This document shows, one piece after another, positions 33,301 through 50,716 of a stretch of 64,000 nt of DNA (positions within the stretch are counted from its first letter, which is position 1; every line of letters starts with the position of its first letter). Source of the DNA: a virus. Lineage: Duplodnaviria > Caudoviricetes. Below the pieces are notes generated by a model. The model worked only from the letters and a program-made list of their open reading frames with translations. It was not told the origin of the DNA and ran no database searches. The stretch lies in IMG/VR virus record IMGVR_UViG_3300008954_000001, one strand, 5' to 3'. A program made the translations under genes and the position numbers.

Positions 33301-36300
33301 ATCATTTGTGTTCCAATTAACTGTTTCTTCGGATGCTCGAACAGGTCGCATCGGGGCTTTTTGCCCGTTGATGGTTCCAGTTCCTTCCCAAGCGGGATCG
33401 GGATAAAACGTCCCCCCCGCTGGTGTCAGATTTTTCCCGTCCGAATGGTTTTGGGGGTCGAGGCCGTAGCGCACCAAATAGGTGCCGACTTTAGTAGAGG
33501 CGTACTCTCCTGGCCCTGTTTGAATGTAAACCACATCTCCCGCTTCCACTTCGGGGCACTTGAAGGAGCACTCATCGGGATCGTTCAGATATGGCATAGT
33601 TTCATCCATACTGTACGTTGAGATACGATTCGGGAACGAGCTTGAACCCGTTAACGGGTCTGCGTCTGCGTCTTGGTGCCAGAGCATGTCCCCATATCTT
33701 CCTTCGGGCAGATTGGGGGGGATCACCAGCGAGGTTGGTGTCAGGTCAGAGGACGGGATCGCCGCTGTCTTGGCCGCTTCTGTGAAGGTGATTGGGACAT
33801 TCCCGTGGGCTTCAAAGCCCATCACTCTCAAGACCCCATAACCAGTTCGCCAATAGCCCACACCGTCAATCGTAGGGGGTTCCTCTCCAGCAGGTATGTT
33901 GTCGGGATCGATATCCGTCATCCAATCGTGTCGAGGAAGGAAGGTGAACGGAACGCCCCCATTAACATGCGCCATGTCGTTTACGTTGAGGGGGATCTCT
34001 ACTGGCAATCCTATCCAGTTGAAGTAATCGGAGTCGGTTTCAATCGCTTGCCCCGTGACCTTGGAGACGTTCAGATCCATTTCCAAGTTGATCTCGGAAA
34101 TCGGATGGGTGGTGCCTCGAACTTTCCCGTTACGGACATCCACAGGGCAGGTGAAGGTCAGACGGTCTGAATCAATGTACGCATTGACTCCATCGATAAC
34201 CTCCACGCTCATAAGCACTTCCTCATAAGCGTCGGCAAAATCGCTCACAATGGCGGGGGAGTGATCAATAATATCCCCTTCCCACACCTCGGCATGGCCC
34301 CATGTGTAGCGTTCACGAGGGATAAAGGGGGCAATACTTGGGTCTCCCGAACCATCGTTGATTTCATACGGAAGGTTGTCCGTCAGGTCGATATGGACAA
34401 ACCTCGTCCAATCGAACCATGAACTCACGGCGTTGGGATCATGGTCAGGATTAGCCAACCCTTCGTCGGGGTGGCCTGGAGGGAACGGGTCTGAATACTG
34501 TTCGGGAGCTTCGGGGTGGTAGGTCCGAATCACCATCACCGCACTCGGAGAGTCGTTGGTGGTGTACAGCCATTGTTCGTGCAGGGTTCCACCTACCCCA
34601 TCGGGTGTTTGGATATACCCGATGGGGGAGCCGTCTATTTCAAGTTGGAACACATGCGCTGCACCTGCCCCGCCCATAAGTTCGGGATCGTCTCCCATCG
34701 TGACTTTGACGACATCGAGCGTAAGGAGCACGGAGCCGTCTCCCGCAAGCGCATCGGGTTCGTAAGAGTAAGTGATTGGCGGGCCGGGATCTTCGATCAA
34801 AGTCGCCCGTTGTAGAAGCTGGAAGGTCAGCTTGGTTCCGACTTCTGCTTGTGCAAGAAGGTCATTCAACCCCCCTGTAGCAACATCATATCCGGGCGTA
34901 CCGCTGGAAGGATCGTAGTAGCCACTTCCAAACGGAGTGGTGTCGTTCGCCGCCCCGTCATCTACATTGAAGCCGATGATCTCGAACTCAAGCCTTGTCT
35001 CGGTGTATCCCTGCTCATGGGGGAAAAGAGGGTCCGAACCATTTACAACGGTCTCTCGAACCCGAAGCCCCGACTCCACATAAATAGCGTCCGACTCGAA
35101 GTTCCCCATCGTCGCCATGGCCCGATTGATTTCATAGTTGATCGGGGTTTCAGGCTTCGACCGAGTAACGAATCGAGGGACCGAGATAACGGAATACCTG
35201 TCTGGCTCTTCTCCATGAACGGTGTAGCCGCCTACAGACAAGAACCCTTGGACCCCTGCTGGTGCAGGGAGTGGAGCACCTTGATCTGTTTCAATAAGGA
35301 CCAAATCTCCCGCTCGGAGATCCCCCAACCCACTACCATCCTCGTAAGTACCACCCACAGGGGCAGCGTCAGCCTCTAACTTCAACCCTGACCCGTCTGC
35401 TTCTGCAAGAGGGAAAGCCGTGTTGAAAATCTCATCGGGATAAACAGACTTCCACACATGGGGGAGTGGGGTGAAAGTGCTGTCCTGCTGCATAATGGCG
35501 ATAACGCTCGCCATAGCCTCCCTGAGCCGCACCAACTCTGTGTTGGTAGACTTCATATAGGGGAGGGTGTAATCCCCGCTGTCGTCCCGTGTCTCGCCTT
35601 TGAGGGCGGGGATCGCAAGGGGGGTCAAGCTGGAATTATAGAAATCCGCATCCCCCTCAATACGTTGATGTGGGTTCGGCCCGTGTTGCCCAAACATCTC
35701 GTGTATTCCGAGCATTGGAGTGGACCATTCAGGGAAAGTAAGGTCTCGAATCCGCCCGCTTCCTGAAACAGTGTAATCAAAGCCTTCTCGGTAGGTGGGT
35801 AGGCTGGAAGCGTATGCTCCCAAGTCACTAAATGAGGGATCGTCGGGGTCTACGCCTTCCGTTGAAACCCCGTCTCCGACCAGCATGACCAAAGTATCAG
35901 AATGGGCCAGCGTGATTGGCTCCTCGTTGTTAGCGGGATCAATGATCATGTTGGGATTGGTGATGATGTCCCCTGAAGCAAAGGTCATCACGCAGCCCTT
36001 GATGATTTCTCCAACGAAGAGTTCCTTGAACTCCTCGTTCGGACCCCACCCAGTCTTTTCGTTGTATTTCGGAACCACCATATCGCCATTCGGGTGTCCG
36101 AATTGGAGCCTCATACCAACGGCCCATGGTGGAACATGATCTTCCCAGTTACCCGTATTCAGGTCGGGCAATCCGTTTTCAGGGTCGGTGGTGGCAAACG
36201 AAGCTATGTTGGGCCAGCCCTCCTTTAGGGGGAAATCGGGCAAATCCACCACACTGGCGATTACGGCGGGGCGGGGGATCTCGGAAAAGGAATTTGGGTC

Positions 36301-39300
36301 TGCAACCCCACCATCAAACAACTCCTCGTCCAGTTCGGGGAACCCGATAATACTGTATCGAAACACCCGTGCTCGTGCGGTTCGTGGCCGCATGGTGGTG
36401 TCCGTAACATTTGTAATGGGGCCAATAACAGGGTTCTCCACTTGACCGATAGTCGATAGGAAAGTGCTTCGGAGTTTCCAATCCATGATCTTGAGGAAAG
36501 AATATGTCCCAAAGTCCATATTCTTAGGGTCAGCCCCTAATCCCGGATAGGTGGTGGTGAAGTAATTAGCCTTATTCGGGAAGATGCGAGAAAGATAATG
36601 CGTCTCCTCCATCGAACGAATCCGACCCTTGATCTCAATCTGAGGCCAACCAGGAAAACGCCATCGGATACCTGAGACCCTAAAACCAATCACTACTCGG
36701 TCGTCCACATCGTTTTTGATGTATTCCATCTGATTGTCGATCAGCAGTTCTCGCCAATCGGAAGATGGCATTACCCCATCCAACTCTTCGGCAGAGTCGA
36801 TGGAGAAATCTGTCGGGTCCACAATCAAATCATCTTCGTCTACGATGACATCTGTATCCGGGGGCATAAACCTCAAGAAGGCTCGCCCATACGCATAACG
36901 AGGGTTCAATTTCCCTGAAACAGGGTTGGTGAAGCCAGGGGGTGTGTATTCCAGCCCCTCTCCAACCCAAAAACGGAACTTACCGTCTCGATCTCCAACG
37001 ATTCGGCCCGTAGCGGCCTCGCTGATCTGTTCAAACCCAACGCAAACTTCATTGAAGAAGCTCAGATAGGCACGGGCTGCCCGATCAGTGTCATACAAAT
37101 GATCTTGTTCAACCTTGATCCCAACCCGACCGTTCTCCCAGTTCTTATCTCCACCAACAGCAAGCGTAGAGCCGTAAGAACTTTGCTTGGCGGCGGCCTT
37201 CTTGATGATTTCTGTTGCCGCTTCGCCCGCAAAATCCAACAGTGGGATGGCTCGGTAATAGAACGAGTCTGGTGTGTGATAGGAATACGTCCCCATCAGC
37301 AGGTTCCCCAACAAACCGTTGCCTTCAGATGGGGCAACCTCGTGAAGGTATCGAAGATTGAAAGTGGGGAACTGAGGGTAGCCCTCGACCATTTTAGGCT
37401 TCACTACTCGGATTCTAATCCTACGGAAAGTTAGCCGTTGGTCGCTCTGAATGTACTGTTGGATTGGGTACTGGAAATCGATATCCCCTGTTTGGGGATC
37501 AGCGATATAGTCTTGGAACGGGGTCATTGTGCGACCTGGAAGGGTCGTCCCAAACTTATCGACCTCTCCCCACAAAACGACATCGGTCTCTTCGGATGCC
37601 AAAAAGGGCCTTCCAAAACCTAAATACGTCGTATCGTCAGGGGGGTAGATGGGTCGGGTGCTGACCAACACTTCATCGTCCCCGTACAAAATGCCCTTAG
37701 GAAGGGGTGGGGTGATGGAAACGGTTGTCCTTGTGCCGTCCTCGGACAGTGCCAACCCTGTAATCGTATGGGGAGAGCCGCCGATCTCAATCAAGAAGCC
37801 TTGGCCCAACGCCTCGATCAAGTTCGCAAAGAAAATAACCTCTCCCCGTGTTTTCGGGGTTGGCTCAAAACCTACGTTGGAGGGTTCGGGTTCATCGGGG
37901 TTTCCGAAAACAAGCCGTTCCCCTATCGGAACCAGAAACCCGTGTGGTGAAGAAGCTGTGTTACCCCAAAGGTTCCCACTTGGGTCTTCGGAGATCACCA
38001 CGGGATCAGAAGGATCTACCTCTCTTGCTACAGGCCATTCCGTAATCAGGCTTAGAACATCATTTCCAGGTGCTCTGGACCCTGCTCCCGACGATGGGCT
38101 TTCAGGATAAAAAGTAACTGTGGTTAGGTCTGTTTCCGCATCGTAGGCGACAGCTTTCAAGTAAAAGAGAACCGACCCAAGACGCATCAGTTGGCCGGGG
38201 TGTAGATCCGCACTCCGATCTTCTAAAAGCTCAAATGAGGATACCTTTCCATCAAGGAAAAACGGTGGGCGGTACACGGGAGGTGCCGAAACCGTATAAA
38301 CCGACTCTCCCCCAAAGGCTTCAAGCACCGCATAAGTAATCGTGACCTTACGGCCAGCCAAAGTAGCGGCATATGTCCCATCCCAAACAGGAGTCGTCTC
38401 AATTATGGGGGAGTCAGGGTCTAAGGGGTCGGACAGCACAGCTTCAGGAAGGTCGGGTACATCGTATTCAAGTGTGATCTCATTCGTTTCGTAATCGACC
38501 GACGCTATGATCGGCCCATATTCTGAGGCCATCTCTGGACCCACATAGATAATAGGCTCAATGTCCTGACGGACTGTTCGCCCTGTCGGATTGAACTTGA
38601 AGGTGGTGTTATTGACCTTCTCACATTCTTCGGCTCGAACATGCAGCGGTAGGAACTCGACGATTTCTGGCAGGATGTTGTCGTCGTCATCTTTTAGAAG
38701 CTCTCCCGCCGCATTTGTCGTCTGATAGGTGGCTTCCACAATTTGCCACTCAAGCAACTGCTCTCGGAACATGAAAGCACCAGCCATCGGATTGAGAAAC
38801 ACATCGGTTTGATCCTCTGTGACCATCCGAGAATCCCAATACACTTGCTCACCCATATTGTTCGCAATATCGATCTCGCTAAGAGCAATCGTGCCGTCAA
38901 CCGAGTTCACCTCGGCTTTCCCCGCTTCCAACAGTTCGGGAGGGAAAAGAGTCTCTTCGTAAATGACGATTGCTTGACCATAATCGTCAAGAATCTGACT
39001 GCTGAACTTTAGCTCACGAGTATCTGCTGTAATTTCAACCCCTGTGGGGTCTTCACTGAAATCATCGCTTGTCGGAACTTCGACAAGCTCATCCGAAGCA
39101 ATAAGAAGCGTGGCGATCCGAAGCCGATAATCCCCCGAAGCAAGATGGGTGTCGTCAGGGATATGGTTGGAAGTCAGAAACAAGGAAGCGTTCGCCAAAA
39201 GTCCTAACTCGGTAGTTTCCAACCACCGCACTGCGGCCCTTGGCGCAAAGTAAGATAGCCCGTCTACTTCGGATTCGATCAAAGTGTGGTGCAGCCCAAA

Positions 39301-42300
39301 ACGAATCCGAACTCGTCGTTCACGAGCCAAGTCTTGACTCACATTCGCTATTAAAGCGTCAGTCCCGATCACCCCAACAGGAGATAGTAGGTGAATCTGA
39401 AACGTCTCTCGTGGCATGTGATTGAAGCGTTTGTAGACATAATCAACACTCAATTGATCGTCGATCTCATCGGGGGTTCGTAACGAGTAGACCTCCCACG
39501 AAACCACCCCATCTGAATCCGATGGGAAATTGGGCCACACGGTAAGAGTGTCCTCGTCAAACGCCTCGATCAAATAGGAGCCGACAGAATCCCCTGTGAG
39601 GACTTTCAGGCGGGCACCAATGGCAATGTCAGGGATAGCGTTGAAGCCAACCCCCTCAGGCCCCGCTGAGTCGTCTGTGAACACATTCCCACCCTCATCG
39701 AAGGTGCCTTTCGCCCCCAAGGATAGAAGTGCTCCGATCTCCTGAATCAGGATAGCGTTCCCTGTCGCCCCTTCTTGGGGAAACAAGTAATCTTCTCCGT
39801 CTGTTTGATACTTATATCCGTCCGTACCGGGATCACGGCTTAAGAAGAAGCCTTTGAGGGCGGGATGTAGGCTTTCGGGAACAACCCCTTGAACCCCGAA
39901 GCTGATTGTAGATACGGGGGTCTTGGTTTGAAACGCTACCGCCCTACTCCCCAACCAAACAAAGCGACCGATCCCAAACTGGTGGAGGATATCCTCCATG
40001 TGGACAAGACTTCGCTGGTATGGACCATCAAAAATCTCAAAGAAAACCCCTTCATCAACACCAGCCACATCTTCCAGCGGGGCTTGTTGAAGGAACATAT
40101 AGGGGGAGCCACCAACATCCCCCAAATAAAGGCTTTCAATGCGGTTCGTGGCCCGAAAGTCGGGAGTTCCGTCATCGTTCCCCTTATTGAAAGGGGTTCT
40201 TTTGAAGCCGATGCAACCCCCGGTATCTGGTAGCCAGTTCAAGTCTAATGAGGTGCCAGCCAAATTGACATCTGTAAGGGGGTAGGATGTCTTCCAGAAG
40301 GGGTTGAAGCCTAAAGCCGCACACCCTGAAAAGTCCTTCTCTCCGTCCACCCCTGGAAGGATCTCAATCATCCCCTCACCCGAAGTGGCCGTTAGGAAAA
40401 GACGGTTTCCGATGTAGCCAGCTTCGTAGCCGCTGCCGTCCAGAATAAGGTTGATGCTTTCGGAGACTTCCTTCGCCGTATATGTGTCGGGATCAACCGT
40501 CACTTCTTCTGTAAGTGAGAGAGCTTCCCAGATTTTGTAATGACTTCCCCCAACAACTAACTGCAAAACCTCGTCACCACGAAGAGCGTAGGGTCCATCT
40601 TTCCGAGAAAACATGCGGATATCGGACGCATAAAAGGCTGGCGTAAAGTCTGTGTTTTGGAAGTAAAGTGGCAACCCCTGTCGCTCATCTTGGTTAGGGG
40701 CTGACCGATTGAATACAAGGGGTGAAGTCTCCGCCCCACCATGATTAGAGGAGCCATAAGTAGTGTAAACCTGAGTCAGGCTTGGGCCAAAAACCCCATC
40801 CAAGTCATCGGGGTCTTTTTTGACCACCAAATCCTCAAAAGCCTTATTGGGGTTGAATAGGAAAGTGTCTCCAACCCCCCGACACTTCCGAACTACGCCT
40901 GACTTCCCCGGCCTTCGTCCAACGACCTGACTAAAATTAGGCTCTCGCCCTGTCTTGTCCTCTTCGATCCTTATTCCAGAAACACCAAGGCCGGGAACTG
41001 GAATCGCTACGGGAGCGTTATACCCATCAGACTCCGTAAACTCATCGGTCACAAGTGCGGGAGCCTTTAACGGTTGGGCAACTCGGCACATAGCAACGCC
41101 GTCGTAGTAAAGGGTAGCCCCTGACCACAAAGGCTCAAAATCATCGTTTGGGGCATCCACCTCCCCCATATCCGCTTTTGTTATGTCAGCGGCACTCAAC
41201 TTGATTTGACCTGTCGTCAAAGACACGCCAACTTGACCCGTGTTGATAATCGAATCGCCCAACTGCTGATCGTTATCCGCAAACTGAACGTCCAACCACT
41301 GTCGATTTCCGATCTTCAGTAGGGGTCTTTCTGTAGAACTTGGGATCGGAGAAATGAATAGAGGTTCGAGATCCGTGCCAAGGATCTTCCCCACTTCACC
41401 TTCAGACTCCGACTCGAAGATATCTTGTATGTACCAAATAGTCTGGCCCGCATACTGAGCAAAGACTCCTGGGTGCCACTGAATAATGCCGTTCTTGTCC
41501 CCAACGATCCCAACGGGAGCGGGGTCAAGCACAGAAAAGTCGTAGGTGGCATCATCAATAATGCTGTCAGGTACAACCAAGATCCCACGGAAACCAATCG
41601 TGCCTGCCTCATCGTCCCCTAAAGGGATTGATCCAGCATCAGGACGAACCCCTAAGCGCACCATGGCTACGGAATCAGGGATTTGTGTGCCGACTAAGTA
41701 ATCCCCGACAACCAGATTCTTTGGTCGAGGGGCTAACTGAGTTGTGGCTTTTTCAGCGTCCAATCGGCCCAAATTCTTGATGGGGCCGCCCTTGTAGGGT
41801 GCCCAACGCTGATCTTTCCCGCTAAACCCAAAACGAGTTTGAGAAGGGTCATTGCGAGTCCACCAAAACTTAGGGGGGGACAGATAATAACCAACCTCTG
41901 TGACCCGATCTCCTCGTTTATGGCTCAACCCCGCCACAGAGTTCTCAGTTGGACTCAGCACACCCCGATTGAAGACGGTGTCCTCAACATAGATCACGCC
42001 AGAGTTGGGGGCGGGGCAAGAAATGTTGCCATCGGCTACCGAAAGGGTCACATCATCCCAATCGTCTGACCAATCCCCTCTACGGACGTTGATATAAGCC
42101 ACCCCTGATATGGTTCGGCCACCGTCATCTGTCAAAATGACTCGGCTGCTGGCCGTCAAAGGAGCTAAAACCTGCGCCACTACCTCTAAGGCTTCAGGAA
42201 CAACCTCTCCCTCTGGCATATAGAGTTCAAACGGCTCTGTAAGGGTCAGACTGTCAATGTCCAACACCTCCGCCACAGTTACGGCGTATTCAGTCCCAAA

Positions 42301-42804
42301 GGAATCCTCAAAAATAATGGTGGCATCAGTGCTCAGTTCAGAAACAAAATTTGTCCCAAGCCCTGTCACCAAAGTCGAGTCGTTCATAAACGCTACGATG
42401 CCCGTCAAGAACACGGGAAGAGTATCGTCCTCATCGAGACTGTTACAGGACTCAGACCCGTTTACAGGTATCCTACAAGAGCCTTGGGTCACCACGAAGT
42501 CGCCACCCTCAACCGTAGCGACACTCCCTGTGGTAGCGGCGAATACCAAGTATTCCTCTAATTCGCCCTCATTCCCCATAAGAACTGAAGAACGGTACTG
42601 ATCGACACAAGGATGGGTTGGGTGATCTCCCCAAGCAGTTCGGAAGCCTTCGGAATACCCAAACCCAATGGGAGTGTGAGGTTCCGTTCCGTCAGAGAGC
42701 TTCTTAATGTCGAAATCGACACCCCCCCGTGGTGCCCCCGTTTTGGGGTCATTCGAGGGGGCTACTCTTGGCCCTCTAAGTACGTGTCCATCAAAATTGC
42801 TCAA
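30310..42804 (-). CDS. Giant acidic beta-rich virion protein of unknown function, 4164 aa
   Basis: Uninterrupted 12.5-kb ORF between the spike-tip candidate and the wedge genes. Recurrent short beta motifs and a helical C-terminus. No family recognised. Confidence 0.9.
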   Translation of the reverse strand: MSNFDGHVLRGPRVAPSNDPKTGAPRGGVDFDIKKLSDGTEPHTPIGFGYSEGFRTAWGDHPTHPCVDQYRSSVLMGNEGELEEYLVFAATTGSVATVEGGDFVVTQGSCRIPVNGSESCNSLDEDDTLPVFLTGIVAFMNDSTLVTGLGTNFVSELSTDATIIFEDSFGTEYAVTVAEVLDIDSLTLTEPFELYMPEGEVVPEALEVVAQVLAPLTASSRVILTDDGGRTISGVAYINVRRGDWSDDWDDVTLSVADGNISCPAPNSGVIYVEDTVFNRGVLSPTENSVAGLSHKRGDRVTEVGYYLSPPKFWWTRNDPSQTRFGFSGKDQRWAPYKGGPIKNLGRLDAEKATTQLAPRPKNLVVGDYLVGTQIPDSVAMVRLGVRPDAGSIPLGDDEAGTIGFRGILVVPDSIIDDATYDFSVLDPAPVGIVGDKNGIIQWHPGVFAQYAGQTIWYIQDIFESESEGEVGKILGTDLEPLFISPIPSSTERPLLKIGNRQWLDVQFADNDQQLGDSIINTGQVGVSLTTGQIKLSAADITKADMGEVDAPNDDFEPLWSGATLYYDGVAMCRVAQPLKAPALVTDEFTESDGYNAPVAIPVPGLGVSGIRIEEDKTGREPNFSQVVGRRPGKSGVVRKCRGVGDTFLFNPNKAFEDLVVKKDPDDLDGVFGPSLTQVYTTYGSSNHGGAETSPLVFNRSAPNQDERQGLPLYFQNTDFTPAFYASDIRMFSRKDGPYALRGDEVLQLVVGGSHYKIWEALSLTEEVTVDPDTYTAKEVSESINLILDGSGYEAGYIGNRLFLTATSGEGMIEILPGVDGEKDFSGCAALGFNPFWKTSYPLTDVNLAGTSLDLNWLPDTGGCIGFKRTPFNKGNDDGTPDFRATNRIESLYLGDVGGSPYMFLQQAPLEDVAGVDEGVFFEIFDGPYQRSLVHMEDILHQFGIGRFVWLGSRAVAFQTKTPVSTISFGVQGVVPESLHPALKGFFLSRDPGTDGYKYQTDGEDYLFPQEGATGNAILIQEIGALLSLGAKGTFDEGGNVFTDDSAGPEGVGFNAIPDIAIGARLKVLTGDSVGSYLIEAFDEDTLTVWPNFPSDSDGVVSWEVYSLRTPDEIDDQLSVDYVYKRFNHMPRETFQIHLLSPVGVIGTDALIANVSQDLARERRVRIRFGLHHTLIESEVDGLSYFAPRAAVRWLETTELGLLANASLFLTSNHIPDDTHLASGDYRLRIATLLIASDELVEVPTSDDFSEDPTGVEITADTRELKFSSQILDDYGQAIVIYEETLFPPELLEAGKAEVNSVDGTIALSEIDIANNMGEQVYWDSRMVTEDQTDVFLNPMAGAFMFREQLLEWQIVEATYQTTNAAGELLKDDDDNILPEIVEFLPLHVRAEECEKVNNTTFKFNPTGRTVRQDIEPIIYVGPEMASEYGPIIASVDYETNEITLEYDVPDLPEAVLSDPLDPDSPIIETTPVWDGTYAATLAGRKVTITYAVLEAFGGESVYTVSAPPVYRPPFFLDGKVSSFELLEDRSADLHPGQLMRLGSVLFYLKAVAYDAETDLTTVTFYPESPSSGAGSRAPGNDVLSLITEWPVAREVDPSDPVVISEDPSGNLWGNTASSPHGFLVPIGERLVFGNPDEPEPSNVGFEPTPKTRGEVIFFANLIEALGQGFLIEIGGSPHTITGLALSEDGTRTTVSITPPLPKGILYGDDEVLVSTRPIYPPDDTTYLGFGRPFLASEETDVVLWGEVDKFGTTLPGRTMTPFQDYIADPQTGDIDFQYPIQQYIQSDQRLTFRRIRIRVVKPKMVEGYPQFPTFNLRYLHEVAPSEGNGLLGNLLMGTYSYHTPDSFYYRAIPLLDFAGEAATEIIKKAAAKQSSYGSTLAVGGDKNWENGRVGIKVEQDHLYDTDRAARAYLSFFNEVCVGFEQISEAATGRIVGDRDGKFRFWVGEGLEYTPPGFTNPVSGKLNPRYAYGRAFLRFMPPDTDVIVDEDDLIVDPTDFSIDSAEELDGVMPSSDWRELLIDNQMEYIKNDVDDRVVIGFRVSGIRWRFPGWPQIEIKGRIRSMEETHYLSRIFPNKANYFTTTYPGLGADPKNMDFGTYSFLKIMDWKLRSTFLSTIGQVENPVIGPITNVTDTTMRPRTARARVFRYSIIGFPELDEELFDGGVADPNSFSEIPRPAVIASVVDLPDFPLKEGWPNIASFATTDPENGLPDLNTGNWEDHVPPWAVGMRLQFGHPNGDMVVPKYNEKTGWGPNEEFKELFVGEIIKGCVMTFASGDIITNPNMIIDPANNEEPITLAHSDTLVMLVGDGVSTEGVDPDDPSFSDLGAYASSLPTYREGFDYTVSGSGRIRDLTFPEWSTPMLGIHEMFGQHGPNPHQRIEGDADFYNSSLTPLAIPALKGETRDDSGDYTLPYMKSTNTELVRLREAMASVIAIMQQDSTFTPLPHVWKSVYPDEIFNTAFPLAEADGSGLKLEADAAPVGGTYEDGSGLGDLRAGDLVLIETDQGAPLPAPAGVQGFLSVGGYTVHGEEPDRYSVISVPRFVTRSKPETPINYEINRAMATMGNFESDAIYVESGLRVRETVVNGSDPLFPHEQGYTETRLEFEIIGFNVDDGAANDTTPFGSGYYDPSSGTPGYDVATGGLNDLLAQAEVGTKLTFQLLQRATLIEDPGPPITYSYEPDALAGDGSVLLTLDVVKVTMGDDPELMGGAGAAHVFQLEIDGSPIGYIQTPDGVGGTLHEQWLYTTNDSPSAVMVIRTYHPEAPEQYSDPFPPGHPDEGLANPDHDPNAVSSWFDWTRFVHIDLTDNLPYEINDGSGDPSIAPFIPRERYTWGHAEVWEGDIIDHSPAIVSDFADAYEEVLMSVEVIDGVNAYIDSDRLTFTCPVDVRNGKVRGTTHPISEINLEMDLNVSKVTGQAIETDSDYFNWIGLPVEIPLNVNDMAHVNGGVPFTFLPRHDWMTDIDPDNIPAGEEPPTIDGVGYWRTGYGVLRVMGFEAHGNVPITFTEAAKTAAIPSSDLTPTSLVIPPNLPEGRYGDMLWHQDADADPLTGSSSFPNRISTYSMDETMPYLNDPDECSFKCPEVEAGDVVYIQTGPGEYASTKVGTYLVRYGLDPQNHSDGKNLTPAGGTFYPDPAWEGTGTINGQKAPMRPVRASEETVNWNTNDGWLDLRVPAITAFDEANDILTVSGLRTFDGAPTTNGTSWLDPGGVGLFEAYLYILFENPTDSMNQTDLDEAVLRCEYTAIDAAAGTFTLDLDTAKGGGGTVLSYEDAKELVIASVGKNITGAKFFPINIKHPNTTKYPDIRLSGHDWSELPDDPNPRATDLGVDGLREHRAIRGFVDIQLQNEDMAYGDTQTWTAHGDGDYEPPLPYDGLYNRARIRKHDWMGVNPDKGPEGHILVGKTPATGWVHGEFQEDENALAAYETIPTYIDISFLSLGGEFGINDPTASVANNCLNCLLPGTVFNATFWAEAGVFLEPNFPRPTFDLGRATRSVVCDDNGTVPATEESLDPNEVGERTVLDFIADEDGDTVPDYPFDHFVERVQFSVRRIRRFHNYVLDPLSDAMKGLRFAYETRRSECVSYTQGYTFGKLIVKPPPDAEDITGWGTQLGPLTDDDVNINVGDIVRVMNTTTGELRGWGEISKVEGTLEDIGAGWLQGTEIQIGPPGFVGDDPIAGDQLEIYLFRPPVPHQQSNEQLLELATEEIIMTRRAALGPGNDENGYPAAGGIVKWDASSLPVPEPGDPPHPNTDIYGASVNFLTDTNAGLEDGQINFQSEGIEEGDYLLIDPAGEVEGWDNTQEQPDPVEEGLRPFGDIGTAVSEADGYEKGYPGELDDNRGYYKIEKIEETRVQVSPNRLGASELIGSSGQPNPIDKLHGGGSTPLNFFALYPTISASSLSGEIDPLDGTANGREGQGDLRPTAFAGEDPHQGLWANGGPAWDEPGGETGVPPHNSFKETPFSIGPFSYKVIRPTKFLKDDTVEMILFHRERILSLMENFEGAMRGDKSGTYWDFQNERHSFDLGDPTIPDTGLGVPRNNFLYGLAGQYQYAPFLNDSDCLSALDRRVILEDILLDIEHPPNDTPDPFYTKFSEEDGFPLLLGRIDQILDKTDRIRQKRLAWLFLRTTKTDGTLANIRNWKAQLVERLIERERMRRLQESMGG

Positions 42805-42816
42805 ACCACTACACCA

Positions 42817-43413
42817 TCAAGAAATCATGTTGCTTGGACTTGATCCCGCCGCCACAGCGGGAGCGGGAGTCACGGGGGAGATTGCACCTGTCCCAAACCC
42901 TAAGGCAAGGTTCAAAGCAATCCCATTTCCAATACCTGTTGCTAACATGGGTAACAATACCCCCTTCATACCCACGGCCTTGAATCCGCTCTGAATCGAC
43001 TTGATTAATTTAGGTGAATTAGACACCACCACCTTAGCAATATCGGCCCCACCTGAAACACCTGCAACCGACCCCCTGTAATATGCGCTTTGATTTATAG
43101 TGTTCGAGAACCCGATAGAGATCGCAGTCGCCATCTCCACCATCTTGACCCCCTTTAGGCCAGCAGCAAGGCAAGCCCCTATCACCACTGGCGGTGCCGG
43201 GGGGCAAATTACCTTACCGCTCGATATCATCCCCGCACCCGCTGGCCCTACTGGACAAACACCGACCAGCATCGCATTAGAGGTTTGGGCATTGATCCAG
43301 TTCTGAACCCCCATCCCAATCCCATTGGTCATCATCAACCAACCCGGAGCCGTGGACTTGAAACTGCTTGCTGAACGAATGTTTTGAGCAAGCGACACCC
43401 CAATAACAGGCAT
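42817..43413 (-). CDS. Small Gly/Ala-rich protein with three internal repeats, candidate spike-tip protein, about 198 aa
   Basis: ATG at 43413 has GGAGG RBS (the ORF-track start at 43491 overlaps the spike gene). Immediately downstream of the spike. Three repeats similar to LATGIGxG. Confidence 0.6.
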   Translation of the reverse strand: MPVIGVSLAQNIRSASSFKSTAPGWLMMTNGIGMGVQNWINAQTSNAMLVGVCPVGPAGAGMISSGKVICPPAPPVVIGACLAAGLKGVKMVEMATAISIGFSNTINQSAYYRGSVAGVSGGADIAKVVVSNSPKLIKSIQSGFKAVGMKGVLLPMLATGIGNGIALNLALGFGTGAISPVTPAPAVAAGSSPSNMIS

Positions 43414-43424
43414 AGCAGCCTCCT

Positions 43425-45776
43425 TTATACGAAACGCATCCCGTAGGCCGCTGTCGTAATCATCTTGTACTTCAACCCTGTAATCGGACAAAGGGAGCCG
43501 CCCGTAACAGGGCTGCCTGGAGCCGCTGCATTAGCCGCTGCCGTGAAGGTAAACAAACAAGCGTTCGCATCATGTTTACCTACCGTATCTGTACTGTACC
43601 CTGTCAGGCCCGTCAGGGACATGGCCGCCAACTGCGCTTTGTGGGAGATCCCACCAACCAAAGTCGAATTCGTATAACCGTTCGCAAAATCTTGGACGGT
43701 TTTGTTTGTGCCACACTTACTGGTTCGTTTACCTAACCCGATGATGTGTTTCTCATCCCCAAGTTTGCGATTGACCTCACCATCCCCCGCATCAACCGTG
43801 CATTTCGTACTGCCATAAAGATAGTGGCTCTCATCCACAACAGTCGGGTAAGCAGCGCAACCAGAGGCGGGGCTACTGGTGAACTCTGTTTTTCGACACG
43901 GGCCGTCTTCGGAAGAACCCCCACCATGGGTGTATTTGGCGGTTTTCGACGTAAATACCTCTTGGTTGTCTCCGGCAAAGGATATCTTTGGAGACTCTAC
44001 CTGACACGATGATTTTACACGGCAATCGAAGGTATCAGCGTCATGGAAATCAAAGCTCTCTTGAGCCGAAAAACGGGCACTTCCCGCCACCGTCATTTTT
44101 GAATGGCCGCCAGAATTCAACATCAGGGCAGGGTCATCCTTGGATTGATCTTTCTCGCTCCCTCCCGCCGAGGACATGATGGCATCACCACCAAACATGG
44201 GGCGAGCCGCATTGATCGTTACTGGTCCAGCGGGAGCATCTAATGACACCCCTTCCCCGCCTTCCCCCACAACACTCATCTTTTCAGTGCTCTCAATAGA
44301 GTACGGGCTGGCCGTTCGGAAGGAGTAACCACCTTTGACAAACACTTGAAGGCCGTTCTCGATCCACACAAGCATCTTGCCGTCTTTACGAGAAGCCACC
44401 CAAGAGGAACCCGACCTCGCCGTAACTGTCGCAGGGTTTACTTTCAGCATCATGGAGGCGTGTTCGCCTATGGGCTTTCCTACACCTGAAGACAGAATTC
44501 CTTCCCCATTGACGATTTTTGGAGCAATTGGCTTTCCGTAAAGGTCCGGGTCACCGTAAAAATCATTCCCAACCACTGACCCCAACACGAACTCAACCAT
44601 GGGGGGCATCGCAGTCCCTCCCATGGGAAGACGATCCGCATCAAAGTTGTCTGTCGCTTCCGTAACGGGAAGCGTAGCGTCTGTCGTTTCTGCGACCTCT
44701 ACTCGAAACTCAGGGTCAAACCCCCACATACCGAGAGCGGCAGCATTGTGTGGTTCCCCCATCGGAGCCGCCTTGGACCCCACGTGCGCCCCGTACCGCC
44801 AGAATCCTTTGCCTCCATAGTAAGCGAAGTCCTCGGAAACATTTTTCGCCCTACCTTCATCATTGATAAACCCACCAGCTTCTAAAAAGCCAAACGGGTC
44901 TAAAGCACCGAACGGCACCCCTTTGCCTTGCATTTCAACTATAAAGATATTTTTTTCATCTTCGTCCCTTCGGAAAGGAAGAGCGGGGTTCAAATAGCCG
45001 TCTTCCTGAAGACCAAAACGACCATCGGCTTCGGCACTTGGGAGCTTGTCTAAGTAGTTCAAGAGATCGGCATGTTCCCAATCTTGTCCGTCCGAGAACA
45101 TCTCCGTAGGCAAGATATTAGCGTCTCGTTGAATTGGCCCCGCATAAACACGGGTGCCAGACATCGCCATGTGCGTGACTACTGAACGAGTGATCAAGGC
45201 TTGATCCTGATCTTGTAATCGGATCTCGTTGCCCCTTCGGTTCGCCAAAGTAACGGACTCGTCTAAGACTAAATCTGAACCTTGTGCCGAAGACGCAACA
45301 ATATGTCCCGGCTCCATATGGCGTAATTTGAACCGCTCTCGATCAGAAATGCCCTTAACCATCTGCCGAACACCAGTGGTGTCCATTCCCTCACCCCGCT
45401 CAAACTCCTGAGCGGGAACCCAATCACGAGCAAGCATTGGAGGAGGCGGGAACCAACTTAAAACCATAGGGCGTTTTGCAGAGGCTTGGCCCGATGAATT
45501 TGAGGAGATCCAGCCAACCACACAGTAATCGCCTATGGATGGCATCGACCCCAAGAAAGAACGCCTACCGCCACCTGCATAAGTGATAGGTACGGGGGCC
45601 AACTGGTTGTTTTCAGGGTTGCCCGTAAGCATTTGAAGAGTCACATGATGTGACTCATATTCAACGAAGATGACTTTAGCGACAGCTAAGGACCACGCAG
45701 ACCAGCCGGAGCCTGTCTTCATCCCTTCAAGTTCGGTTTCTTTTCGGTAGAGTAGATCGAGATAGGTATCTGCCAT
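43425..45776 (-). CDS. Central baseplate spike (T4 gp5/P2 gpV/VgrG C-terminal-like), 783 aa
   Basis: OB-fold-like N-terminus AKVIFVEYESHHVTL...PVPITYAGGGRRSFLGSMPSIGDYCVVGW. C-terminal short beta-strand repeats ending VTGGSLCPITG. Follows the hub. RBS AGGAGG. Confidence 0.85.
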   Translation of the reverse strand: MADTYLDLLYRKETELEGMKTGSGWSAWSLAVAKVIFVEYESHHVTLQMLTGNPENNQLAPVPITYAGGGRRSFLGSMPSIGDYCVVGWISSNSSGQASAKRPMVLSWFPPPPMLARDWVPAQEFERGEGMDTTGVRQMVKGISDRERFKLRHMEPGHIVASSAQGSDLVLDESVTLANRRGNEIRLQDQDQALITRSVVTHMAMSGTRVYAGPIQRDANILPTEMFSDGQDWEHADLLNYLDKLPSAEADGRFGLQEDGYLNPALPFRRDEDEKNIFIVEMQGKGVPFGALDPFGFLEAGGFINDEGRAKNVSEDFAYYGGKGFWRYGAHVGSKAAPMGEPHNAAALGMWGFDPEFRVEVAETTDATLPVTEATDNFDADRLPMGGTAMPPMVEFVLGSVVGNDFYGDPDLYGKPIAPKIVNGEGILSSGVGKPIGEHASMMLKVNPATVTARSGSSWVASRKDGKMLVWIENGLQVFVKGGYSFRTASPYSIESTEKMSVVGEGGEGVSLDAPAGPVTINAARPMFGGDAIMSSAGGSEKDQSKDDPALMLNSGGHSKMTVAGSARFSAQESFDFHDADTFDCRVKSSCQVESPKISFAGDNQEVFTSKTAKYTHGGGSSEDGPCRKTEFTSSPASGCAAYPTVVDESHYLYGSTKCTVDAGDGEVNRKLGDEKHIIGLGKRTSKCGTNKTVQDFANGYTNSTLVGGISHKAQLAAMSLTGLTGYSTDTVGKHDANACLFTFTAAANAAAPGSPVTGGSLCPITGLKYKMITTAAYGMRFV

Positions 45777-45832: not shown

Positions 45833-48800
45833 CTACTCGTCCCCCTCATCAACCTCTTCGGAAGACCCGACATTCCCACCTTGATCGGTGTACATATCTT
45901 CCTCTTCTGGGGGAGCATCGCCTTTGAAGGTTTGGTAATACCATCCCGTTTCATCATTCGGCCACGAAGTCGCTTTACCCTCCTCCCAGTCCGTCATGTG
46001 TTCGGCTACGGACTCGTTTAAGTCATCTTGGGCCTGAGCGGGGTTGTGCCACTCATCAGCATCCCCATCAAAGATTTCCATCCACCTATTGTGTTGGGTT
46101 GACCCGACCTCATTGAGCTTATCGTACAAATCAGCCAATCTGGGATCGTCGGGAGCGTCACTAAACGCCGTAGCTAATTTCTGGAATGCTTGGCCCGCTG
46201 CGCTGTTCTCCCAATTCCCATCCCCGCCCCAATTATCGAACATATTGGCAAAATCGATAGCGTCTCGTGGCTTCTCGATCTGACCCCGCAGAGCGTCCTG
46301 AATGATTGTGTGATCTATTGAGGATTCTACAACTTGCTGCTGAACCGTTTTGACCACATTCGTTTGCAGATCCCCATCTTTGCCGTCTGGGGAAACATAA
46401 ATAAATTTGGACTCGTCTGTGGCAATCATTCGGACCATGGAATCGTATAAGATTTCATTCCCCGCCACGGGATCAAGCCCACCACCGGGGAAGATATCCA
46501 CAATGTTATACGCAGCGTTTAGGGGATCTGTGGTGCTGCCGGGAGTGTCTTCTCGTTGGAAATAGTTAATGAGACCCGCCGCCATGACTTTCCGTGTGGC
46601 CGCACTGCCCGTAATCCCCTTTTGCTCAATATACTGCGCCGTAGAAACGATGGCCTTGTCGTCATCCGTAGCTACTTTTAGAGTTCGTTGAAGTCTTGAG
46701 AAAGCCGCAGGGTTTGTTGTTTGCATCAACATGATCGCATCAAGCATCGTCGGAGTTGCTGCACCTGTGGCTGCGGTCGCCGTTCCAAACCCTGACAGAA
46801 GAGCCAACTTTGTGGAGCCTTCCTTCAATATGTCTCGAACAAACTTATCAATAACAGTGTCGTCGAGGGTTTCAAGAGGGTCTTGGGCCAGCAGCTTCTC
46901 GAAGCCTTGGCCCTCTTCACCAATCCGCAACCCACGCCCATACGCATAGCTTCCATAATGCCGATATCCACCCGCATCGCTGATCGGAAAGACGGGGGAC
47001 AGCACCTTTGTTTTCCGTCGAAACGACCCGGTTGCATTGTAATGCCCGCTTGCACTAATGGCCCAAGGCTTTAGCCACTTCTCACCACTAAGATTGAATG
47101 TGTCACATATGGCCTTCTGGAAAGAATTCAGTTCGAGGAAGCCATCTTTCGCCGCATCTGTATTCCTTTGCGCTTTGGTTTTGAATATTTTCCCCCACGC
47201 TACCGCCGAATACTTCAGTATGTAATATAGTCTGAAAGCAACCGCCTTAGCCGCTAACGTGTAAACCCCGTGCGACAGCTTCTTCATATCGACTTCTTTT
47301 TCGTCAAACCTCGGTCTGTCCGCTCTTTGTATCTGCCGCCTACCCTTTTTATAGCACTTACATTTGTCGTTGCCCTTGGGAGATTTGCCGCCTTTACAGT
47401 AGTTGTGCAAAAAGTAGTGGGAGGCTTTGACTTTGCTCATATCCACGGTTTTGTCTTTGTTTTGAGAGGCATCCAAGTCACTGTGGGGGAAGTCCGCTCT
47501 GACGTTACTACCAAACTCTTCCTCTAAGCCCCAACTAAGAGCCGAAAGTGCGCCGTCCCATTTTGCCGTAACTGACGTAGGTGGCGGAGTGTGCTTGCCG
47601 AAAGGGTTGTTCGCCGCCGTCCACCACGTTCCTGCACCAGGAATCGCAAGAGAATCCAACTCCGCAAGAATCGGCCCGAACCAATCCTCCATCGTATCGG
47701 TTGCTGCTGGCGGGCCGTATTTAATTCCCCAGCGTTTCACAAGTGCTTCTGCAAGGGCTTTTTCAAGCCCGCTGGCTGGGGATGGTGCGCCTGTGTGGGA
47801 TGACGGCACCATGGCCTTCAAGTCTATCCCCAACTGCGAAAAAACAAGCGTGTAGATTTGATCTGTAGGCAAGTCCTCTGTTCTCGATCCAGCCTTAGCA
47901 ACTCGAAAGGCCCTTACCTTACTTTGTTTTGAGTCGTCCCATGCCGCAAACCGCTTCTTCAAGTTATCCATTCCTTGAATAGCTTTTGGAACTTTATCCG
48001 CATTACTTCCCGCATGGAACATCCCATGGGAAGCATCTGCCATATCGTCGTAAGCGTCTTTTATGTTTGCACCCCCCGAACCCGGCATTGTGAAAGTGTA
48101 TCGAGTCGGAGCTTGATTCTCTCCTACGGGGTGTGCCGATGAATAATATCGGTAATAGCCGGGGGTAGAGGCGTTGCTGAAATTAGATTTCTTATCTCCC
48201 AAGAGATTCAAAATCTGTGCCGAATCTAACTTGTCTGGCTCATGTGCTTGGTTCCCAAGAACCCAAAGCACAGAAGTCAAAAGGTCAAAGATATCCGCTG
48301 TCCCCTTAGGGACGGTCCCGATAGCTTTCTTTTCATATGCTTTGATGTAGTCTGTGAGGGTGTCTTGCCAATCGCCCGTAACATCGAAATCCGCCCCCCC
48401 TTTACCGACATCCTCCTTTTGTTTTTCCATAAAGTCTTTGTAGGTCTCGACCTGCTTCTCAATTTCCGAAATTTTAAGCTGTTTGTAGTCCCATACAATA
48501 GAGCCGTTTTTCGTCACGTATTTCGACGACCCTGATCCAAGTCTCGGAACCCGAACCCACAAATCCGCTGCACCCACTGTAGAGGTGGTATCAAAAAGAG
48601 CTTTAGCTTTAGTTTCACTCAATGCAGCCCCGGCACCAGAAGTGGAGGTTGTAGCGAGAGATGAAGAGGATTCTCGGATCAAGGGTTCTTTTTGAGCGGG
48701 GTCTTTGAATGATGCCAGCGTTTGTTTGCTGTCGTGCCCGCAAAGGAGCAGGACCATGTTTCGGACATTTTGTGCATTTGACAGGTCCAAAACATCTTGG

Positions 48801-50716
48801 CCCAAAGCCCACGCAAAAGGGCTTATTCCAGCGGGATCGAGGGCCATGACCACATTCGGAAAGCCAGCAAACTTTACTGCACCTTCTCCAGAACCTTTAT
48901 CCTCCATCACTAATGGAAAATTCGGCAAATCGACACGATCTAATCGCACCCCGTTTATCCCATTAGCATCCCCGCTCGCTGATTGGTTGCTGTCCCCCGG
49001 AGCCATAAACTTCTCTCGCCTCGCCACGCATTGAAGAGAAGTTGTACATTGACCCCCATAACTAAAGCTGTGAGACATGGACTTGATGTAATAAAAGCAA
49101 TCTAAGTGCTCCACATACACGGGAAAGCCCGGTCGTAGTTCAGGACGTAATGGGATCGTAATGTTGGCCGAGTTCATCGCCTCATTAAGAATATCAATCC
49201 GAGCAACCGCAGCCCAAAACGCCCCACGAGCACTACTATAAAACTGTGCGTCCAAGTCTCCGGGTCGCCACCCAAACTTTGCCACCAAAGGGTAATCGAT
49301 ATACTGTCCTCGAATACCCCATTCGCCATCAAGACCCACACCCGTCATGTTCGAGAAGGCACTCGATTTGACTGTCATATATGTAGCAGTAGGTTCGGCA
49401 GCGGCTCTGGTGATTGAGATGAGGTCTTGGGGAGCAATCCTGTACGCCTCCAAATTACGAGTATCCAGATTGTAAAGAGGTGGCTTGAACACCAAATCCC
49501 CATCCACATCTTGATAGAACTCGTAACCCACGGCGGTAGCGGCTGCGCTGGCAATATCCAACTTGGAGGTGTACGAGGCTTCCCACAAGTTGACGTTGCC
49601 CCACTGACTAATATCATGCACAAAGGCTTTCAGTTGGGCTGCTGATACAGCCACACCCGACTTTTCGCCCGCTCTCGGCATGTATTGAAGCCTATCCGCA
49701 GGGAAAGAACCTTGGGTGTACCTTCTTGCATCCTTCACATCAGTTGCCATTTTCCAGATATCTTCGTTTCCTCGAAAAAGATCTGAAGGCTCCGTCTGTG
49801 TGTTTCCAGTATGTCGCAAGTTGATCTCTGCCGCCGTGTTCAATTGCTTAGTCGTCATACGACCAATCATGGCCGTCTGGACCGAATTCAACTGCTCTCC
49901 GTTCACACCAAACATGCGTAGGTTGTACACTTTACTTCGGAAGCGTTGCTCCCAATACTTTTGGGTCATCTCAAATAGAGAGTTACCTGTCCCAAAGAAC
50001 TTCTTGGCTTGGTTGCTGGAAGCACTCAACGCAAACGCCACACCTCCCGCTGCCCCCGCCGTATCCTTGTAAAGCGAGTAGATGATCGAAAACGGGGTCA
50101 TGTTGGTAAAGTTGTGGCCCACCAAACTCATTTTGAGCTTTGATCCCGTAGGCCGAGTACCAAACAACGAAGCGTTTGTACTGATGTCGTGGTACTGCCA
50201 AAAATGCAACATTCCAGTACACGACATATTGATCGAGTAGAAACCACCGCTGTAATCAATGTTGGCGGTAGTCGTGACCCCATGAAAGCAGTGGTAATAG
50301 GGTCGGAGGGCTAAATCCGTGGCATTATCCCCAAGAGCATCCCGCAGTGCTTTCACTTCTGTAGCATCTAAAGTATTCGCCATCCCCTCCACAGGAAAGT
50401 AGCCTCTCATATAAATATGAACTTCCAATCCTGGCTGGAAAACTGAATGCCCGTCCGAAAATAGAGAACTCCCAATGTCATTGGGAATAGACATGGTGAA
50501 GGAACCAGAACAGGAACCCGCCTCCACACCAGAATCCACAGAAATCTGCGTGATATACCGCTGGATATCGATCTTCTTTTGTTTCGTAGACTCTGCTTTT
50601 GAAGACGTAACGGAAACATCGCCGTTCAGAAACAGGACGGCATCTGGCGTGTATCGGATCACTCCTTTGCGGTTCGGCACCCAATTACCAGCGTGTGGTC
50701 GATCAAAGACTCCCAT
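45833..50716 (-). CDS. Baseplate hub (T4 gp27/Mu gp44-like) with about 1050-aa C-terminal extension, 1627 aa
   Basis: KLDIASAAATAVGYEFYQDVDGDLVFKPPLY and ITIPLRPELRPGFPVYVEHLDCFYYIKSMSHSFSYGGQCTTSL are typical hub motifs. Synteny between tube initiators and spike. RBS AGGAGG. Confidence 0.85.
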   Translation of the reverse strand: MGVFDRPHAGNWVPNRKGVIRYTPDAVLFLNGDVSVTSSKAESTKQKKIDIQRYITQISVDSGVEAGSCSGSFTMSIPNDIGSSLFSDGHSVFQPGLEVHIYMRGYFPVEGMANTLDATEVKALRDALGDNATDLALRPYYHCFHGVTTTANIDYSGGFYSINMSCTGMLHFWQYHDISTNASLFGTRPTGSKLKMSLVGHNFTNMTPFSIIYSLYKDTAGAAGGVAFALSASSNQAKKFFGTGNSLFEMTQKYWEQRFRSKVYNLRMFGVNGEQLNSVQTAMIGRMTTKQLNTAAEINLRHTGNTQTEPSDLFRGNEDIWKMATDVKDARRYTQGSFPADRLQYMPRAGEKSGVAVSAAQLKAFVHDISQWGNVNLWEASYTSKLDIASAAATAVGYEFYQDVDGDLVFKPPLYNLDTRNLEAYRIAPQDLISITRAAAEPTATYMTVKSSAFSNMTGVGLDGEWGIRGQYIDYPLVAKFGWRPGDLDAQFYSSARGAFWAAVARIDILNEAMNSANITIPLRPELRPGFPVYVEHLDCFYYIKSMSHSFSYGGQCTTSLQCVARREKFMAPGDSNQSASGDANGINGVRLDRVDLPNFPLVMEDKGSGEGAVKFAGFPNVVMALDPAGISPFAWALGQDVLDLSNAQNVRNMVLLLCGHDSKQTLASFKDPAQKEPLIRESSSSLATTSTSGAGAALSETKAKALFDTTSTVGAADLWVRVPRLGSGSSKYVTKNGSIVWDYKQLKISEIEKQVETYKDFMEKQKEDVGKGGADFDVTGDWQDTLTDYIKAYEKKAIGTVPKGTADIFDLLTSVLWVLGNQAHEPDKLDSAQILNLLGDKKSNFSNASTPGYYRYYSSAHPVGENQAPTRYTFTMPGSGGANIKDAYDDMADASHGMFHAGSNADKVPKAIQGMDNLKKRFAAWDDSKQSKVRAFRVAKAGSRTEDLPTDQIYTLVFSQLGIDLKAMVPSSHTGAPSPASGLEKALAEALVKRWGIKYGPPAATDTMEDWFGPILAELDSLAIPGAGTWWTAANNPFGKHTPPPTSVTAKWDGALSALSWGLEEEFGSNVRADFPHSDLDASQNKDKTVDMSKVKASHYFLHNYCKGGKSPKGNDKCKCYKKGRRQIQRADRPRFDEKEVDMKKLSHGVYTLAAKAVAFRLYYILKYSAVAWGKIFKTKAQRNTDAAKDGFLELNSFQKAICDTFNLSGEKWLKPWAISASGHYNATGSFRRKTKVLSPVFPISDAGGYRHYGSYAYGRGLRIGEEGQGFEKLLAQDPLETLDDTVIDKFVRDILKEGSTKLALLSGFGTATAATGAATPTMLDAIMLMQTTNPAAFSRLQRTLKVATDDDKAIVSTAQYIEQKGITGSAATRKVMAAGLINYFQREDTPGSTTDPLNAAYNIVDIFPGGGLDPVAGNEILYDSMVRMIATDESKFIYVSPDGKDGDLQTNVVKTVQQQVVESSIDHTIIQDALRGQIEKPRDAIDFANMFDNWGGDGNWENSAAGQAFQKLATAFSDAPDDPRLADLYDKLNEVGSTQHNRWMEIFDGDADEWHNPAQAQDDLNESVAEHMTDWEEGKATSWPNDETGWYYQTFKGDAPPEEEDMYTDQGGNVGSSEEVDEGDE

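Follow-up and report, generated by a model that had tools for sequence, protein, structure and literature searches.

To our knowledge, the spikes of all well-studied contractile injection machines end either in a PAAR-type cone or in a fused apex, and phage RB43 is so far the sole hint of other spike-tip solutions. The PAAR tip is an all-beta cone of approximately 90 to 100 amino acids made of three intertwined hairpins, with a tetrahedral metal site of three histidines and one cysteine at its apex, and the tip monomer sits on the trimeric spike beta-helix, at its blunt C-terminal end. T4 gp5.4, VCA0105 and c1882 of type VI secretion systems (T6SS), and phiKZ gp163.1 are PAAR-repeat spike tips (PF05488, DUF4280). 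In P2 gpV, phi92 gp138, and Mu gp45, the apex is fused within the spike chain, and a separate tip protein is not required. At the tip of the trimeric gp37 fiber of T-even phages, the capping protein is gp38, a Gly-rich monomer that serves as a receptor-binding adhesin and has a polyglycine sandwich.

The T4 gp5.4 monomer consists of three hairpins and acquires a local threefold symmetry by which it binds the trimeric spike (PMC12407873, PMC13250141). Spike and tip are encoded as gene pairs, with gp5 followed by gp5.4 in T4 and gp5 followed by orf205w in RB43 (PMC12407873), and phiKZ pairs gp164 with the monomeric tip gp163.1 (PMC13250141). In RB43, which is a relative of T4, gp5.4 is replaced by an unrelated non-PAAR tip of approximately 690 amino acids at the same gene place (PMC12407873).

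The protein described here (P0001, 198 amino acids) is encoded within a 64,000-nucleotide stretch of viral DNA, referred to below as the window, and is best explained as a single-copy virion protein of the tail baseplate in a clade of marine huge phages. Like the PAAR tips, it comprises three internal repeats that each give a predicted beta-hairpin, and it is the product of a small single-copy gene that in the ancestral order comes right after a putative spike gene. Unlike them, it has neither PAAR motifs nor a metal site and is twice the size. RB43 orf205w demonstrates that the spike tip can be taken by a non-PAAR protein whose gene directly follows gp5, and the N-terminal 220 residues of orf205w are, like the small protein, a mixture of helices and strands; in contrast to the small protein, orf205w is mostly helical over its approximately 690 amino acids.

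The gene and its baseplate block

The small gene is real and has a strong ribosome-binding site, an AAGGAGG sequence that overlaps the TAA stop of the upstream 783-amino-acid gene (Table 1). The boundaries assigned by the initial annotation are correct, and the coding strand is the minus strand, which carries every large open reading frame in the surrounding 60 kb. A longer frame of 224 amino acids that starts with TTG was rejected as the gene, since all homologs begin at the methionine of the 198-amino-acid frame. The block around the gene also encodes a gp25-like sheath initiator/wedge protein (weak match to PF10934; phrog_975 and phrog_43) and a Baseplate_J protein (PF04865, phrog_6), which together identify it as the baseplate block of a contractile tail. 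Upstream of the spike gene lies that of a putative hub with a long extension, the position of which is conserved in all loci. Farther upstream, a 623-amino-acid protein carries a glycine-zipper-like segment at its C terminus (residues 580 to 620), which is a second Gly-rich hydrophobic element of the tail block; the matches of this protein to PF13441, PF13488, and PF04306 are weak and all fall below the curated cutoffs.

Table 1. Features of the small gene, its product, and the neighboring genes, in window coordinates
Feature	Position	Strand	Evidence or remark
CDS, 198-aa three-repeat small protein (P0001)	42817..43413	-	homologs, profile search, AlphaFold2 (AF2)
Stop codon of the small gene	42817-42819	-	sequence
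ATG of the small gene	43413-43411	-	
Shine-Dalgarno AAGGAGG	43419..43425	-	5 nt before the small-gene ATG; read from sequence
Repeat 1, residues 1-70	43204..43413	-	H5-15 short helix, H23-42 long helix, E47-69 beta-hairpin (AF2, hhalign)
Repeat 2, residues 71-131	43021..43203	-	H74-83 short helix, H89-109 long helix, E111-131 beta-hairpin (AF2, hhalign)
Repeat 3, residues 132-198	42820..43020	-	H133-146 short helix, H154-170 long helix, E173-197 beta-hairpin (AF2, hhalign)
Downstream neighbor, 4164-aa giant baseplate-block protein	30310..42804	-	starts 12 nt after the small-gene stop
Upstream neighbor, 783-aa putative central spike	43425..45776	-	weak Foldseek OB-fold likeness
C terminus of the window spike	43425-43520	-	variant motif
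Putative hub with long extension, 1627 aa, upstream of spike	45833..50716	-	weak phrog_52 'tail protein' match
623-aa protein upstream of hub	50728-52599	-	glycine-zipper-like C-terminal segment
Tape-measure candidate	53278-57825		

The 783-amino-acid protein is likely the central spike, as judged from its predicted structure. An OB-fold is located at its N terminus, its long C-terminal part is rich in Gly and Ala, and its C terminus holds a conserved element. Searches of its sequence in Pfam, PHROGs, and the PDB, the last also with a family profile, gave no match. AlphaFold2 with a 28-sequence alignment produced a poor model (pLDDT of 52), in which a five-stranded N-terminal domain has the best local confidence. 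Among the top 50 Foldseek rows for this model, 11 are central spikes of contractile systems, all of them weak (E values of 0.03 to 0.2), with matches to Afp8, Pvc8, phi92 gp138 (28% identity), P2 gpV, SN orf41, Pam3, E217, Pa193, phi812, and Bas63. With phmmer, residues 660 to 779 matched the Hia adhesin chain 3emo_C at an E value of 0.002, which is probably a compositional match. A relationship between the small protein and the spike was rejected by hhalign.

The conserved C-terminal element of the spike comprises approximately 30 residues after a Gly/Ala-rich repeat region. Most spike homologs end in G-x-LDPxTGLPF-x-T-x-G-x-GAKGH, with one histidine per chain, and the spike of the window has a variant of this motif without the histidine, SLCPITGLKYKMITTAAYGMRFV. 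The element could be either a docking platform or a built-in apex. The OB-fold of the window spike is weakly similar to those of P2 gpV and phi92 gp138, and the spike has its conserved C-terminal element; if its apex is fused as in those proteins, then the small protein must do something else.

Triplication and predicted fold of the small protein

The initial annotation had pointed out three similar units, separated by Gly/Pro beta segments. These units occupy residues 24 to 39, 88 to 105, and 151 to 168, with a spacing of 64 and 63 residues. Within P0001 alone, Smith-Waterman comparisons between them give z values of 0.6 to 2.8 against shuffles, which are not significant. The thirds of a 136-sequence family alignment were compared with hhalign, and they match at P values of 1.4e-5 for repeats 1 and 2 (score, 27), 5e-7 for repeats 1 and 3 (score, 34), and 1.7e-8 for repeats 2 and 3 (score, 39), while column-shuffled control alignments scored at most 13. 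The repeat is evident from the family profile only and not from the single sequence.

The AlphaFold2 model calculated with the same alignment has a pLDDT of 94.9 and a pTM of 0.89 and presents three times the order short helix, long helix, and beta-hairpin, with a period of approximately 63 amino acids. The three similar units proved to be the long helices of a true triplication, and the segments between them are genuine beta segments in the model. The hairpins, with G-x-G-x patterns, are the best-conserved elements of the family, and that of repeat 3 has a Pro/Ala-rich turn. Repeat 2 contains D124, which is 99% conserved, and K127; together with K67, these are the only commonly charged positions. 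Taken from profile comparison and structure prediction, the small protein is an ancient triplication with a compact predicted fold that has no solved counterpart.

Direct-coupling analysis was performed on 201 nonredundant family sequences. Among the top 60 couplings, 15 occur at repeat-period separations versus 8.6 expected, which is an approximately 2-fold enrichment (P = 0.02). The top couplings include the hairpin-hairpin pairs B1-B2, B2-B3, and B1-B3, the long-helix pairs H2-H4 and H4-H6 of neighboring repeats, and a cyclic set of short-to-long helix pairs, H1-H4, H3-H6, and H5-H2. These couplings match the prediction for a closed pseudo-C3 domain, and since the effective number of sequences (Meff) is 192, they support a pseudo-threefold arrangement only modestly. 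The basis for the threefold arrangement in three dimensions, modest in strength, is secondary structure combined with covariation.

Thirteen close homologs of the protein have identities of 45 to 92%, and a profile search of 1.8 billion representatives retrieved 263 clusters of the family, 187 of them at E values of 1e-10 or lower. The full-length matches listed are nearly all 187 to 205 amino acids long; all members are metagenomic, and the cluster names are uninformative. A search for fused or longer forms found none, which is weak evidence, and one peptide pattern of the family was found in none of 185,579 bacterial and archaeal species represented by one genome each. Neither P0001 (at E ≤ 0.1) nor the 136 family members (at E ≤ 0.01) matched a Pfam family, apart from two chance hits among the latter; P0001 had no match in PHROGs, the family profile had none in a PDB sequence search, and no description of the family was found in the literature. 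Structural comparison of the model gave a similar picture, as Foldseek found nothing credible in the PDB (best E value, 0.2) and VIA-align against 48,161 PDB representatives reached a best Z of 4.7, which is below chance expectation. In BFVD, Foldseek matched one uncharacterized viral protein of 207 amino acids (E value of 1.8e-3, TM score of 0.36), and the ESM Atlas matches were limited to unnamed viral clusters and one unnamed Myxococcota cluster. The predicted structure of the 303-amino-acid proteins in the Myxococcota cluster resembles that of the small protein, with a TM score of 0.73 over 182 residues; these proteins may be relatives from bacteria or prophages that carry an extension of approximately 100 amino acids.

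The protein had been described at the outset as hydrophobic and as lacking both a PAAR motif and a metal-binding set of histidines and cysteines, and each of these traits extends to the family. Its members are unusually hydrophobic, with a GRAVY of +0.78, 15% Gly, 14% Ala, and only 4.2% Lys, Arg, Asp, and Glu, whereas each of the neighboring virion proteins has a GRAVY of −0.02 to −0.54 and 16 to 34% charged residues. P0001 itself has a GRAVY of +0.63 versus −0.15 for T4 gp5.4, and 6.6% versus 18.6% charged residues. Histidine (0.2%) and cysteine (0.5%) are scarce in the family, and none is conserved; P0001 contains no histidine and three cysteines, which are not conserved. The Pfam searches of P0001 and the 136 members detected no PAAR motif, and no PAAR chain is among the Foldseek or VIA-align matches listed for the small protein. 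An identity with PAAR or gp5.4 was rejected, with an hhalign probability of 0.2% against T4 gp5.4, and so was homology to RB43 orf205w, at the same hhalign probability of 0.2%. The PAAR cone is all-beta, whereas the model of the small protein has three hairpins and six helices in 198 amino acids; the three hairpins alone may nevertheless bear a local likeness to the cone.

PAAR genes were also sought in the related genomes. PF05488, which found T4 gp5.4 as a positive control at an E value of 1.8e-10, had no match in LR745208 or in G001 to G005, three of these being 93 to 100% complete. The PAAR absence rests on PF05488, as the genome search with DUF4280 missed its own control. Without a PAAR gene, these phages would have either a self-capped spike or a non-PAAR tip.

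Gene order across related phages

All 37 IMG/VR loci reached via the small protein have the order hub, spike, small gene, and giant gene, with junctions that overlap or span 0 to 12 nt. Three of these loci have an extra Cys-rich open reading frame of approximately 275 amino acids, without a Pfam match, exactly between the spike and the small gene (L010:7166-7993, and also L011 and an L021-type locus). An unbiased test is provided by loci reached via the spike; this search yielded 195 relatives, of which the best 80 were kept. The small gene and the giant gene directly follow the spike in approximately 53 of these 80 loci (class A), whereas neither follows it in approximately 24 (class B, counted where the sequence continues for 5 kb or more downstream). 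The placement of the small gene after the spike, as initially reported for the window, is thus correct there, in every locus reached via the small protein, and in class A, and does not extend to the class B loci or to LR745208.

Class B spike genes either end their operon or are followed by a gene of the Amidase_2, pentapeptide-repeat, or GGACT-like type. In one class B clade, the gene after the spike encodes an N-acetylmuramoyl-L-alanine amidase (Pfam Amidase_2, E values of 8e-16 and 4e-8; L005:10488-11261 in LR745208.1 and L054:7394-8191), which may act as the cell-wall hydrolase. Eight large class B records each contain exactly one copy of the small-family gene. In six of the eight split genomes examined (G001 to G005 and G007), it is located 16 to 210 kb from the spike and immediately upstream of the giant homolog, in the same orientation, as the first gene of a giant/wedge operon. 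The gene that directly precedes this small-giant-wedge operon encodes a DNA methylase or an SNF2 helicase (L128-L132, L138; G001-G005, G007). Several lineages have the baseplate block in two parts, a hub-spike operon and a small-giant-wedge operon, which are up to 210 kb apart; in approximately one-third of the clade, the giant gene is not located between the spike and wedge genes.

Two further records show other arrangements. In LR745208, the small gene is 3 kb from the start of the giant gene, on the other strand, and adjoins a gene for an HNH endonuclease (L001:14297-14989). Mobile endonucleases may target the spike-small junction and drive rearrangements. In G006, a 234-kb record, the small gene stands alone, and since the giant, Baseplate_J, and the whole wedge block are off the record, the missing giant is uninformative on dispensability.

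On the spike tree, there are at least three changes between class A and class B, and class A is found on both sides of the root, which makes the spike-small-giant order ancestral. After the split of the block, the small gene is beside the spike in none of the approximately 24 class B loci. Both the spike-small junction and the small-giant junction are breakable, and the independent split events are few (two to three).

Candidate roles of the small protein

It is plausible, although we rate the chance as somewhat below even, that the small protein is a cap for the spike tip. In this proposal, a single chain that arose by ancient triplication of a helix-helix-beta-hairpin unit would fold as one compact, approximately threefold-symmetric domain. 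Positioned on the axis of the tail, this domain would serve as a symmetry adaptor, and its most likely site would be the blunt end of the trimeric central spike, which it would close as a non-PAAR cap. The conserved Gly-rich hairpins, three in number like the spike chains, would be the docking elements for these chains, and the nearly charge-free, lipid-friendly surface of the tip would come from the six helices rich in Gly and Ala. Upon sheath contraction, this tip would be the first to enter the host outer membrane, with which it would make contact, and it would be shed together with the spike. A cap is favored by the pseudo-threefold monomer, the ancestral synteny, the single copy, the absence of PAAR in the clade, the conservation of the hairpins above all other elements, the weak likeness of the spike OB-fold to central spikes, and a gene layout like that of the spike/tip pairs of T4, RB43, and phiKZ. 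On the other side, once the block is split, the small gene goes with the giant or alone and never with the spike, the composition is unlike that of T4 gp5.4, and no fold or profile likeness to PAAR or gp5.4 was found. Furthermore, the spike could already have its own apex in the C-terminal element, as P2 gpV does, and a cap would then lack a platform. More tentatively still, the small protein may represent a third, structurally unrelated class of spike tip in PAAR-less marine huge phages, namely, an alpha/beta pseudo-trimer of new fold with a membrane-inserting, charge-free surface.

The fate of the gene after the split speaks for a partnership with the giant baseplate protein rather than with the spike, a reading that we consider somewhat unlikely. 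Through its pseudo-threefold form, the small protein would then cap, nucleate, or adapt some trimeric portion of the giant, by analogy with gp38 on gp37, or it could be an assembly chaperone whose synthesis is tied to that of the giant through translational coupling; gp38 has a different fold and serves here as a mechanistic analogy only. The small gene directly precedes that of the giant homolog on the same strand in approximately 90 loci, with gaps of 0 to 50 nt, and keeps this position in the six genomes with a distant spike, which belong to two clades of the spike tree; there it heads the giant/wedge operon, after nonstructural genes such as that of a methylase or an SNF2 helicase. The association is statistically weak, however, because the independent splits are so few, and the small-giant junction has itself been disrupted on at least two occasions, in LR745208 and in G006. 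Conservation between the giant of the window and that of LR745208 does not extend to the first 100 to 200 residues, and the tip gene 5.4 of T4 is likewise located just before wedge genes, 6 and 7, so that the position is no argument against a tip.

The composition that would make a lipid-friendly tip also bears on two other readings, a membrane-active protein or a plug, which even taken jointly are unlikely. A membrane-active protein would be stored in the baseplate, ejected, and inserted into the host membrane after contraction, where it would contribute to the DNA conduit by itself, in oligomeric form, or with the giant and an 897-amino-acid protein. This is improbable, even though the family is so much more hydrophobic and less charged than its neighbors, its long helices are Gly/Ala-rich, zipper-like, and 17 to 21 residues long, and integral membrane transporters make up almost all of the top VIA-align rows, at chance-level Z values of no more than 4.7. 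The family-average maximum in 19-residue Kyte-Doolittle windows is 1.32, below the transmembrane threshold of approximately 1.6, and P0001 reaches 1.8 only at residues 68 to 86, which form a strand, a loop, and a short helix in the model. Three of the six helices are only 10 to 14 residues long, one-third of the chain is beta-hairpin, and AlphaFold2 predicts one compact domain. The glycine-zipper profiles PF13441, PF13488, and PF05433 match neither P0001 nor any of the 136 members, there is no membrane Pfam match, and the N terminus, as read from the sequence, has no signal peptide or lipobox. More improbable still is an internal axial plug, present as a single copy in the cavity of the trimeric hub and spike or where the tape measure ends, a site at which water would not reach a charge-free surface. 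A pseudo-threefold monomer encoded once per genome among hub and spike genes and lacking charge would suit such a site, but the tape-measure candidate shows no linkage to the small gene, and known hub cavities are filled by the C terminus of the tape measure, as in the T4 baseplate.

Whichever partner it has, the small protein is a compact target for structure determination and co-expression, and it is universal and single copy in the baseplate block of an abundant, uncultured clade of marine phages with genomes of 230 to 485 kb. If it is the partner of the giant, it would give the first clue to the assembly of that unexplained protein of 2,900 to 4,200 residues. If it is the tip, it would provide a handle for locating spike tips in many PAAR-less phages, and these phages would use a different strategy for the first membrane contact, with a greasy surface instead of a sharp, metal-braced point.
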